Shown here one piece after another: positions 32,344 to 36,179 of a DNA stretch of 64,000 nucleotides. Positions within the stretch are counted from its first letter, which is position 1; each line of letters opens with the position of its first letter. The notes beneath the pieces were generated by a model, which had not been told where the DNA came from, ran no database searches, and saw only the letters and a list, made by a program, of their open reading frames with translations. Origin of the DNA: Candidatus Obscuribacteraceae bacterium (GTDB lineage: Bacteria > Cyanobacteriota > Vampirovibrionia > Obscuribacterales > Obscuribacteraceae). The stretch spans positions 672,001 through 736,000 of the forward strand of contig JBGAHS010000001.1 of NCBI GenBank assembly GCA_044226015.1, read 5' to 3'. Both the position numbers and the translations under genes were made by a program.

Positions 32344-35300
32344 GCTTCTATTTCCAACCCCCAGATCTAGCTGAATTCCCGAGACGTTCGTACAGAAAGT
32401 TTCTCGAAGAAACAATTGGCAAGCTTTTCACTGAAATTTCGCCAATTGGCAGTGAGTTCAACAACCGTTTCGAAATCTCTTTCATCGGCACCGATGGAAA
32501 GGCTCACTGGAAGTTCGAAGACTACGGCATCGACTCCGGCTACCCAACATCGGCTGAACATGCTCGCAAATCTAACATGACGCATGCTCGCAGATTGCTC
32601 ATGGACATCTGGCTTCGCGATACTCAGACTGGCGTACTGAGAAAGACCACCGCTTACATGGGTGACGTTCCAGTAATTACCGACCGCGGAACCTTCGTCA
32701 TCAACGGTTCTGAGCGTGTCGTCCTTGGACAGTTGGTTCGTGCTCCTGGCGTATACTTCTCCAACCCAGACAATCAAATCTACAAAGCTTTGATTCTTGG
32801 TGAACTTGGCGCTCCAATTTCTTTTGAACTCGACCTCGAGACCGGAACAGGCAAAACCAGCCGCGCTAAGTGCCGCATCAAGTTGCCAAAGCGTGGATGG
32901 GTTTCAGCTGTAACCGTTTTGACAGCAATGGGCGTTGATTGGGATACATTGCAAAAGCGCATCTTCCCTTTGCTCAACAAGCATCGCATTGAGTACAAAC
33001 AACTCAACGCTTCCGAAGCCCTCTCAACCCTGGGCAGAGCCTGGAAGCCAGACGGTGCCGGCGGCGCAGGTGCTGGTTCTTCAGCACTTCAAGAAATCAC
33101 AGACCGTCGTCGTTATTCACTCGGTGATCTCGGTCGTCGTCGCTTCAACCGCAAACTAGACTCTGAAATTCAATCACTTCAGCTCACCAAAGAAGACATT
33201 CTTCTTGTTGTTGAATACTTGCTCAACCTGCCACTCGGCAATGGTACGACCGACAACATCGACAGCCTTGAAAATCGTCACCTTCGTGGAATTGGCGATG
33301 TTCTGACCAAAGCTGTTCGTCCAGCGCTTGCGCAGATGGTTCGTTCAGTTCGCACAAGACTCGAACTGCATGAAGATGATGAAGAAATCGGCAGCCCACA
33401 GGACTTTCTTGATGTTCGTCCTTTCGCAAATGCAATCAACAAGTTCTTCTCGGGCAATCCGTTGGTTCAATATCTCGACCAGCAAAACCCACTTTCTGAA
33501 CTTTCACATCGCCGCCGTATCACATCTTTCGGACCTGGCGGTATTGACCCGAACGCTGCACCGACAGAGATGCGCGACGTGCATCCAAGTCAGATTGGTC
33601 GCGTTTGCCTCGTAGAATCTCCTGAAGGTAAGAACTGCGGTATGGTGTCTTATATGGCAACATTCTGCCGCATCGATAACGACGGTTTCATGACCGTTCC
33701 TTACCGCCGTGTTGTTGATGGTGTAATGACAGATGCTGTCGATTACCTCACACCAGCTGACGACAAAAAATACACACTTGCACCACCCGATACCAAAGTT
33801 GATGGCATTCGCATTTGTGGACCAACAGTTTATGCTCGCCGTGGAGAAAGCTTCTATAACGTCGAACCGAGAGAAGTCGACTATATAGGAATTGCTCCAC
33901 AAGGTTTCCTCTCCGTCGGTTCCGGATTGATTCCTTTCCTCGAGCATGATGATGCCAACCGCGCTTTGATGGGCGGCGGCATGATGCGTCAAACTCTGCC
34001 TTTAATCAAGCCAGAGCGTCCACGCGTCGGAACCGGCATGGAAAAGATTGTTGCTAAGTCTTCTGGTCACTCAATCACCGCAAGACGCGCTGGCACAATC
34101 ACCAAGGTTACTGGCAAAGAAATTAGAGTGACACAGGCGTCTGGCGAATCGCGCACTTATCCTCTAATCCGCTATGACAGAACCAACCAGAACACCATTC
34201 TCGACCAGCGTCCAGCTGTGAAAGTTGGTGACAAAGTCGAAGCCGGACAAATCATCGCTGATGGACCTGGCATCGAAAAAGGCGAACTGGCACTCGGACG
34301 CAATCTCCTCGTAGCTTTCATTCCATGGAATGGACAGAACTATGAAGATGCTATCGTTGTCCGCCGTGGTTTGGTTCGTGACCACAAGCTAAGCCACATC
34401 GAAATCGAGAAGCACACAATCGGCGTTCACCAGACATTGCGTGGACCAGAAATCTTGACTCCAGAGCTTCCGAATATTTCTTCGAAAGATCTTGAGCATC
34501 TCGACGAGCGTGGCATCGCAAAGGTCGGCGCTTATGTTGAGCCTGGCGACATCCTGGTCTCTAAGCTTTCACCAAAAGAAGCTAAAGCAATGAGCGCTGA
34601 AGAAGAATTGCTTCAAGCAATCTTCGGAAAAGTCGCAGAAGAAATGGCTGACACCAGCTTGCGTGTTCCACACGGCTCTGGCGGTCGCGTCATCGATGTG
34701 CGCATCTTCACCCCGGAAACAACTCCAGAGTTGAAAGCTGGATTGATTTGCGAAATCGAAGTGCTCATCGCAAGACTCTGCCCGGTAGAAGTTGGCGATA
34801 AGCTCGCTGGACGCCACGGAAACAAGGGTATCGTTTCCATCATCGTTCCAGACGAAGACATGCCATATTTGCCAGACGGCACCCCTGTTGATATTTGCTT
34901 GAACCCACTGGGCGTTCCAAGCCGTATGAACATCGGACAGGTACTTGATACTCAGCTCGGTCTCTACTCGCAAATTCTCAACCGCTACTATCGCATTCAT
35001 CAATTCGATGAATCGTTGAGCCCAGATGCTTCGTTCAAACTAGTCAACGATGCACTTGCTGATGCTCGCAAAGTTCCAGGTTATGAGTGGATTGGCGAAA
35101 ACGGCAAAACAACACTTTATGACGGCAAGACTGGCGAGCCATTTGATCGTCCAGTTCTGGTCGGTCGCCAGTACATGCTGAAACTGAATCAATTGGTTCT
35201 GCACAAAATTAATGCTCGCTGCGGACTGGGTGGTCCATACGCTGCTGTAACCCAGCAACCCGTTGGTGGTAAAGCGAATCACGGCGGTCAGCGCATGGGT

Positions 35301-36179
35301 GAAATGGAAGTTTGGGCAATTCAAGCATACGGTGCTTCCCATATCCTTCACGAAATGATGACTGTAAAATCTGATGATGTAGAGGGACGTCACCAGATTT
35401 ATTCAGACATGGTACAAGGCAAAGAACTTACATCCGGAAAGAGAACCGCTGCGTTCGACGGACTTTGCTGCGAAATTCGTGGACTGGGTCTGGAAGTCAC
35501 TCTGGGCAAAGTTCTCGATGTCGAAGAGCCAATCGAGTCCAAAGCCTGCACCAAGAAGGGCAATGTCAAAACGAAGTCACTGGAAGAAGAATATCAAGTC
35601 AGCCATGTCGATCAACTCGAAGAAGACGGCAAGAAGATGGTCGAAATTCCAGCTGGCGATTATGAACCATTGATTCGTCCAACCGCTGAACCAGTTCTTG
35701 TTTCACTCGGAATGGGCAGAAATGCAAACAAAGTTCAATTTGATATGTCGGAAGAACCACTTATCGACGACATCGATGAAAACACTGAGTTGCAGCTGAT
35801 CGATGATTTCATCAGTGCCGAAACCGACGACATTATCGCTGCGCTCGGCAACGACAAGCCTGTTCAACCAGAAGCACCATGTTTGCGTAACATTGGACTC
35901 GATGATGTCGAGGACGAAGCCGAAGACATCTTCAGTATCAGTTCAATTATCAGAGCTGAAGCTGGCGACACTTCGATTCAAGGAACCGATGCTGCAAGAG
36001 CCGCAGTGCGTGCCGCTCAAAAGAGTCTCTGGGGTGATGATAAAAAAGATGAGCTGAGCTTTCCATCGTTCAGCGAACTCTCTTCACTTTCGCAACAACT
36101 TTCACAGCTCCTCGTTGGCGAACCCGAAAACGAGTTCAAGCCAGCAAATAATGAGCTGACGATTCTCACCAAGGAGTAA
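32340..36179 (+). CDS. rpoB: DNA-directed RNA polymerase beta subunit, divergent orphan paralog with acidic C-terminal extension
   Basis: [114 protein letters not shown] RBS. No adjacent rpoC or rplL. Confidence 0.95.
   Translation: [1279 protein letters not shown]

Follow-up and report, generated by a model that had tools for sequence, protein, structure and literature searches.

A divergent second RNA polymerase beta subunit in Obscuribacteraceae and its possible association with a conjugation-type secretion cluster

The stretch of DNA analysed here (the window; 64,000 nucleotides) covers positions 672,001-736,000 of the forward strand of contig JBGAHS010000001.1, in the 8.19-Mb, 92% complete genome of Candidatus Obscuribacteraceae bacterium (GCA_044226015.1). 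On its plus strand, at 32340..36179, lies rpoB2, the second gene of a five-gene operon, which encodes an intact, full-length, divergent paralog of the RNA polymerase beta subunit (1279 a.a., including an acidic tail of ~220 a.a.). The protein, beta2, scores above both RpoB cut-offs over its full length (NF001616, 1068 bits against a cut-off of 896; TIGR02013, 1035 against 801), and all six Pfam Rpb2 families match it. It is 41.7% identical to the housekeeping RpoB (beta1) of the same genome, the gene for which is on the same contig (G000:C11:1301315-1304836, where G000 is the source genome) and precedes rpoC1 and rpoC2. rpoB2 is not adjacent to rpoC1/rpoC2, as the housekeeping position upstream of rpoC is occupied by the other copy. 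The best solved relatives of beta2 are cyanobacterial (PDB 8syi_C, 907 bits; 8gzg_C, 879; 8h3v_A, 867).

A preliminary description of this locus had proposed that the hybrid-binding/switch-3 motif is rewritten in the paralog, and the peptide that it quoted is encoded inside rpoB2, at 35172..35330 (+). Numbered according to E. coli RpoB (from NC_000913.3, aligned to beta2), H1237 is replaced by Q951 (codon at 35190), D1240 by L954, D1241 by H955, H1244 by N958, and Q1264 by N980, and residues 962-963 form a two-residue insertion. The 16-residue link region (33945..33992, +) contains N684G (G547) and Q686M (M549), with R678, M681, M685, R687, and Q688 kept. A whole-protein search was carried out over 40 relatives: 24 genomes of the same family, three of the sister family, and 13 of other families of the class. 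In all 23 paralog loci, the rewrite (H1237Q, DD>LH, H1244N, the insertion, and N684G/Q686M) is identical. On the other hand, H1237 and H1244 are retained in 72/72 canonical RpoBs, in which positions 1240-1241 are DD in 64 and ED, AD, EE, or AE in 8, but LH in none. The substitutions are not those of the lineage's canonical rpoB either, as the housekeeping copy of this genome has the canonical motif. Beta2 is therefore an RpoB by score and by catalytic residues, but one that carries Q, G, and N (23/23) at the universal residues H1237, N684, and H1244. The proposed rewrite was thus upheld, except for the change of QRF to QRM, which is not at an invariant site, since position 1270 is L in 6/8 canonical copies of the lineage.

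The catalytic-side residues, which the same description had judged intact, are indeed kept. E813, D814, K1065, K1073, R1106, R678, and Q688 are present in 23/23 orthologues, and E565, G566, D516, H526, R529, D446, and R1269 are likewise invariant in all of them; Q513 is kept as well. Also retained in all orthologues are D1084 and G1215, which we take to be alpha-assembly residues, and the flap-tip residues L901/L902/F906; beta2 further retains D446, R451, and R151 of the core recognition element (CRE) pocket. Across the 481 columns that are invariant in eight canonical copies plus E. coli, beta2 keeps 276, is fixed for another residue at 116, and is variable at 89. The fixed replacements include W183P, H447S, Q510P, S531T, L533F, R540P, R542A, G544P, and T563S, as well as PES to TAA at 1320-1322, although the alignment is less sure in low-identity stretches such as 183-203, which includes W183. 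Fork loop 2 is altered by R540P, R542A, and G544P, and the charge of the flap by K900E, R903Q, E908K, and K909V. Within the acidic C-terminal tail (35520-36179), short motifs (one of 12 letters, and FPS-L) are conserved across orthologues and are possible partner-binding sites.

The paralog was found in 22/24 same-family genomes, 1/3 of the sister family, and 0/13 of other families of the class. One of the two same-family misses is a 58% complete genome without any rpoB, and the other is 85% complete. One match is a contig-end fragment, and one orthologue (genome G018) is split in two pieces. Another 60 genomes of the phylum gave no rpoB2; four of them have no RpoB match at all, and two were already in the first set. 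A search with residues 935-1060 returned 105 proteins at 72-100% identity, followed by a gap to at most 61%. The motif expression is matched by 104/105 of these, a set selected by that same region, and N[YF]ED, an 11-residue motif, and PSRMN are present in 105/105. A degenerate DNA pattern found 85 stretches among 185,579 GTDB species genomes; among the 80 titles listed, most are Obscuribacterales or Melainabacteria, and three name other phyla, have the same operon, and are probably mislabelled or mis-binned. Gene 5, which serves as a marker of the operon, has a single match in each of 76/77 family genomes that are at least 85% complete, and in 0/2 of the sister family.

Random variation among orthologues, which the preliminary description had named as a sign of relaxed decay, was not seen. 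The ratio of nonsynonymous to synonymous substitution rates (dN/dS) of rpoB2 is 0.024-0.088 in 10/11 pairs (one was saturated), compared with 0.017-0.049 for beta1, these being rough values with synonymous sites near saturation. In the 46-codon motif, 19 comparisons gave 476 codon differences and only 23 amino-acid differences. No other 50-residue block of the protein is as conserved as residues 951-1000, where 43/50 are invariant in 20 genomes and 15 differences from the canonical copy are fixed. The amino-acid divergence of beta2 is about twice that of beta1, the distances of the two proteins track each other (Mantel r 0.83, 0/5000 shuffles), and the GC content at third codon positions (GC3) is 0.472 for rpoB2 and 0.473 for the housekeeping copy. 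Because the rewrite is fixed, dN/dS is low, and the gene has diverged together with the housekeeping rpoB, decay does not account for it. In a 26-row tree the paralog clade has a stem of ~2 substitutions per site and a shallow crown, which reads as a burst of change followed by fixation. An approximately unbiased (AU) test rejected neither Obscuribacterales RpoB (p 0.115) nor E. coli (p 0.122) as the sister position. Mobile integrative/conjugative cargo was considered as well, and was rejected on the near-universal marker gene, the matching GC3, and the co-divergence with beta1.

Several of the altered positions have been studied before. According to the accessible text of PMC3994528, the initiating nucleoside triphosphate is bound at its gamma-phosphate by Q688 and H1237 and at its alpha-phosphate by K1065 and K1073, and N684 substitutions give viable GE23077 resistance. 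The accessible text of PMC9254596 describes H447P, T563P, and H1244Q as giving a shorter promoter-complex life and lower rRNA-promoter activity with elongation largely intact; H1244Q cuts the promoter-complex half-life 2-2.5-fold and does not block elongation. Similarly, W183A shortens promoter-complex life about five-fold and does not slow elongation (PMC4499132, accessible text). Together with the residue pattern of beta2, this literature is consistent with a polymerase in which elongation works but initiation differs, and also fits the earlier suggestion that catalysis may survive with altered initiation. Three of the five beta sites of the E. coli rpo* suppressors that were tested are fixed-changed in beta2 (H447S, T563S, and H1244N), and Q148 and G1260 are kept.

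The other genes of the operon are also on the plus strand. Gene 1 (30292..32343) encodes a tetratricopeptide repeat (TPR) protein with a signal-peptide-like N-terminus, as indicated by Pfam TPR matches, orthologue N-termini, and synteny; its likely start is ATG 30292, not GTG 30253, and its stop overlaps the start of rpoB2. Gene 3 (36186..37901) has a signal-peptide-like start, Gly-rich repeats, and a conserved two-helix membrane hairpin, the VirB2/TrbC pilin-like character of which is a lead only. Its Atlas matches (0.80-0.84) are mostly conjugative pilin or integrative and conjugative element membrane families, and 10 orthologues have no Pfam match, including to PF04956 and PF18895. Gene 4 (37988..38722) encodes a predicted secreted helical protein without a family. 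Gene 5 (38795..39571) encodes a 258-a.a. Replic_Relax homologue (Atlas 0.93 to a PF13814 cluster) with a near-invariant N-terminal helical region, presumably winged-helix-like. The order TPR, rpoB2, Gly-rich membrane, helical secreted, and 258-a.a. protein was found in 19/19 fetched neighbourhoods and in 61/63 pattern loci with enough flank; the other two are without only the gene-3 match at the threshold used.

Gene 5 aligns over its full length with the genome's own Replic_Relax protein (hhalign E 5.5e-6, probability 86%, 223 columns), which itself scores 46.8 bits against a Pfam cut-off of 25.3. Gene 5 is below the PF13814 cut-off, with 1/15 orthologues matching (E 0.0043). A fold search against the PDB gave nothing at E <=0.001 and weak restriction-nuclease-fold matches (best E 0.013), and a profile search over 1.84 billion representatives gave 29 matches with no named or contextual information. 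The acidic E-x-D motif is catalytic in Replic_Relax nucleases. It is absent in 15/15 gene 5 orthologues, and E[MVI]DTG is visible in the six VirD4-linked copies whose alignments cover the site; judging from the sequence, gene 5 is apparently nuclease-dead.

Upstream of the operon, at 30188..30252 (+), two TGGGA boxes lie 21 bp apart, the proximal one being palindromic (TGGGA-N5-CCCA), with a -10-like TAAGCT at 30247-30252; these tandem boxes may be its promoter/operator. The TPR gene is present in 73 pattern loci. Of these, 49 have a callable start and 300 bp upstream, and 48/49 contain GGGA-N5-CCCA, preceded at 21 bp by a second TGGGA and followed at 22-24 bp by a TAAGCT-type hexamer (34 distinct sites, from kin that are not independent). 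A generic scan for sigma-70 promoters and terminators gave results at chance level. When a promoter model trained on 25 rpoB2-operon upstream sites only was run on the genome, four distinct places reached at least 23 bits, compared with 0 and 1 in two shuffled genomes. These are the rpoB2 operon, a DUF2225-VirB4-VirD4-relaxase operon (rank second genome-wide), a 78-a.a. gene, and a 779-a.a. gene. Furthermore, 17/18 DUF2225 upstreams from 14 genomes outscore 99.8% of this genome's 5654 gene upstreams, by a null that ignores GC differences. The unannotated 78-a.a. gene (G000:C11:510456-510689, minus strand) has the same tandem-box promoter and orthologues at 65-99% identity, in 24/27 genomes of the order and 0/13 outside; 12/26 of its upstreams match the strict box expression, and only a faint RuvX match (E 0.059) was seen. 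The 779-a.a. gene, without a Pfam match, lies behind the fourth-best promoter copy (G000:C1:2235-4577, minus strand).

A candidate for the protein that binds these boxes is a NarL-family response regulator at 22765..23679 on the minus strand, whose NCBIfam matches are below the cut-offs. Such a regulator is found in 56 loci (66/73 loci have at least 2 kb upstream), always divergent from the operon, within 1 kb in 45, and at 81-91% identity; three genes separate the two in this genome. Its acidic pocket, with ERH where we take DD to be usual, appears atypical. Between regulator and operon in this genus lies a 1230-a.a. repetitive protein (25529-29221, minus strand), the C-terminal region of which has at least eight paralogous matches in the genome.

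The second operon preceded by this motif is part of a chromosomal cluster on the minus strand (G000:C10:61345-90226) that encodes secreted proteins, a pilin-like gene, a large membrane protein, DUF2225, VirB4, VirD4, and, last, Replic_Relax. The 142-a.a. pilin-like gene is 81-97% conserved; its alignment with the hairpin of gene 3 gave an hhalign E of 0.013 and a probability of 3%. The N-terminal motif of gene 3 also occurs in the gene that comes first in the cluster (best E 4e-10, small database). Order-wide, the relaxase is present in 26/27 genomes and the VirB4 family in 27/27, and both are present in 0/13 other genomes of the class. The cluster looks like a domesticated conjugation-type system. 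With the Replic_Relax (PF13814) relaxases of VirB4/VirD4 conjugative elements, gene 5 shares full-length homology to this genome's own member, whose operon has the same promoter motif; however, gene 5 lacks the E-x-D motif, and both clusters here are single-copy and lineage-wide, unlike patchy mobile elements. A second VirB4 paralog (G000:C1:183271-185976, minus strand), also order-wide, is split by a stop in this genome and lies near TadE-like genes and Gly-rich secreted proteins.

As for possible partners of beta2, the genome has one gamma (with the NADFDGD loop), one beta-prime, and one alpha subunit, and 17 sigma-70 region-2 matches. No second beta-prime, gamma, or alpha, nor any other DxDGD two-barrel partner, was found in this 92%-complete genome.

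We propose that rpoB2 encodes an inducible alternative beta subunit, which joins the housekeeping subunits to give a second polymerase that initiates differently and serves a domesticated conjugation-type programme, a reading of sequence data to which we give an even chance of being correct. An activator, most likely the adjacent NarL-type regulator, would bind the tandem boxes and induce the rpoB2 and VirB4-VirD4-relaxase operons together; co-regulation of the two is suggested by their common boxes. Beta2 would then compete with beta1 for gamma/beta-prime. The resulting enzyme would elongate RNA, but its promoter complexes would be less stable, the initiating triphosphate would be held more weakly, and sigma docking would be changed, thereby redirecting transcription, with the dead relaxase (gene 5) acting as a DNA-binding helper.

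A number of points weigh against this proposal. H1237 belongs to a set of 11 active-centre residues, 10 of them unchanged from bacteria to humans and six known to lose function if substituted, although the accessible text of PMC3994528 does not name which six; the ~116 fixed changes could together disable initiation. Enrichment of changes at the rpo* sites is not significant (P 0.09), and the replacements differ from the E. coli alleles. An AlphaFold model of beta2 residues 1-1062 (predicted local distance difference test (pLDDT) 69, predicted template modelling score 0.47) is uninformative at the rewritten sites, because pLDDT is <50 there (947-1007 and 521-558); beta without beta-prime is poorly ordered in this model. 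A common promoter motif does not show a common function, order-wide co-occurrence is expected of any lineage-specific gene, and a role in transcription does not explain why three of the four companion genes look envelope-type. In two of the three sister-family genomes (G025 and G026; 94 and 88% complete, fragmented), the VirB4 cluster is present with no rpoB2 or gene 5 seen. G025 also keeps the promoter boxes of the cluster, and the third genome, G027, has rpoB2 on a 4.5-kb contig. Lastly, short contigs from RNA libraries of three studies align with rpoB2 (the motif included) and with genes 3-5, at 96-100% identity and a depth of 2-10; as the runs were found using this stretch, this is weak and uncontrolled support for transcription, and DNA carry-over is possible.

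Among the rival explanations, the loss of H1237 and N684 at the i-site and the rewriting of fork loop 2 and switch 3 would suit a decoy, in which beta2 assembles and binds nucleic acid without productive initiation, sequestering gamma/beta-prime or occupying DNA and so damping housekeeping transcription during the secretion programme. The single beta-prime set to compete for points the same way, yet the i-site is still lined by Q688, K1065, and K1073, and all tested catalytic-side residues are invariant in orthologues, which a pure decoy need not keep; we consider it unlikely. RNA polymerase is able to prime on single-stranded phage and plasmid DNA. Beta2 could accordingly belong to a primer-making or single-strand-specialised polymerase, which, on the DNA that the VirB4-VirD4-relaxase system moves, lays down RNA primers or early transcripts, and the promoter in common with the relaxase operon, the relaxase homologue and pilin-like hairpin encoded alongside rpoB2, the lost non-template-strand contact W183, and the changes near the RNA exit path are all consistent with this. 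However, an enzyme that has lost the gamma-phosphate contact would be expected to start less well de novo, beta2 retains the CRE-pocket residues D446, R451, and R151, and DNA transfer by the cluster is only putative, which makes this less probable still.

The S531T, L533F, R540P, I572V, and N684G replacements lie in or near the rifamycin and GE23077 pockets (N684: PMC3994528, accessible text), as would be expected of an antibiotic-insensitive spare copy like the actinomycete rpoB2/rpoB(R). Such a role is improbable, given that Q513, D516, H526, and R529 are kept, that the operon and regulon go unexplained, and that 58% of residues differ, far beyond the five substitutions and six-residue deletion described for Nonomuraea rpoB(R) in the accessible text of PMC5431353. 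Just as improbable is a function outside transcription, with beta2 binding nucleic acid as a component of the secretion machine or being its cargo: translational coupling to the envelope TPR protein and the three envelope-type neighbours speak for it, and the retained assembly, flap-tip, and catalytic residues and the poor order of beta without beta-prime in the model speak against it. A decaying duplicate or assembly artefact, for which the orthologue in two pieces might be cited, is refuted by the intact gene, the fixed motif, the low dN/dS family-wide, the matching GC3, and the marker gene.

The general view is that bacteria have a single core RNA polymerase and that only their sigma factors vary, the exceptions known to us being near-identical rpoB duplicates in some actinomycetes. 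In Nonomuraea gerenzanensis (rpoB(S)/rpoB(R)) and Nocardia farcinica (rpoB2), the second form has been proposed to give a stringent-type enzyme that reprograms expression (PMC5431353, accessible text). Like these duplicates, rpoB2 is a second beta gene with one beta-prime; theirs, however, are set apart by a short deletion and five substitutions, H526N and S531Y among the changes (PMC5431353), and beta2 keeps H526 and has S531T. Beta2 further differs in that more than half of its residues are changed, universal active-centre residues are replaced, and it is a core gene of the family with its own operon and regulon. The rpo* suppressors, for example rpoB*35 (H1244Q), H447P, and T563P (PMC9254596, accessible text), overlap with beta2 at the three sites mentioned, but are laboratory point mutants of a sole enzyme. 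Compared with the cyanobacterial-type RpoB (8syi_C, 8gzg_C, and 8h3v_A), the nearest solved sequences, beta2 is alike in the catalytic-side residues, but is only ~42-44% identical, is an extra copy, and has the i-site, link region, fork loop 2, switch 3, and flap charges rewritten. Plant RNA polymerases IV and V were specialised by duplication of large subunits. They offer an analogy only, sharing with beta2 a core-subunit duplicate, a burst of change near the active centre, and fixation, but they are eukaryotic and both of their large subunits are duplicated. No description of a second rpoB or of this VirB4 secretion cluster in Obscuribacterales was found in the main texts of open-access PubMed Central and bioRxiv; the accessible text of PMC8047818 mentions RpoB2 for archaea only.

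For the Obscuribacteraceae, which are uncultured, non-photosynthetic relatives of cyanobacteria, these data suggest, tentatively and at somewhat less than an even chance, two multisubunit RNA polymerases that differ by a swap of beta, the second being a dedicated enzyme co-induced with a fixed chromosomal VirB4-VirD4-relaxase machine for a DNA-transfer or cell-contact state (transcription reprogramming, or priming of transferred DNA). If true, this would be a bacterial counterpart of polymerase specialisation via core-subunit duplication. A family-wide beta paralog in which universal residues were replaced and then frozen is a natural experiment on initiation, hybrid binding, and switch 3, and is approachable with recombinant subunits. 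In practical terms, phylogenies of this group that use rpoB as a marker can be built on the wrong copy. Moreover, the common boxes point to a lineage-wide regulon, so far undescribed, that centres on a conjugation-type secretion system of bacteria abundant in soil, water, and sludge.

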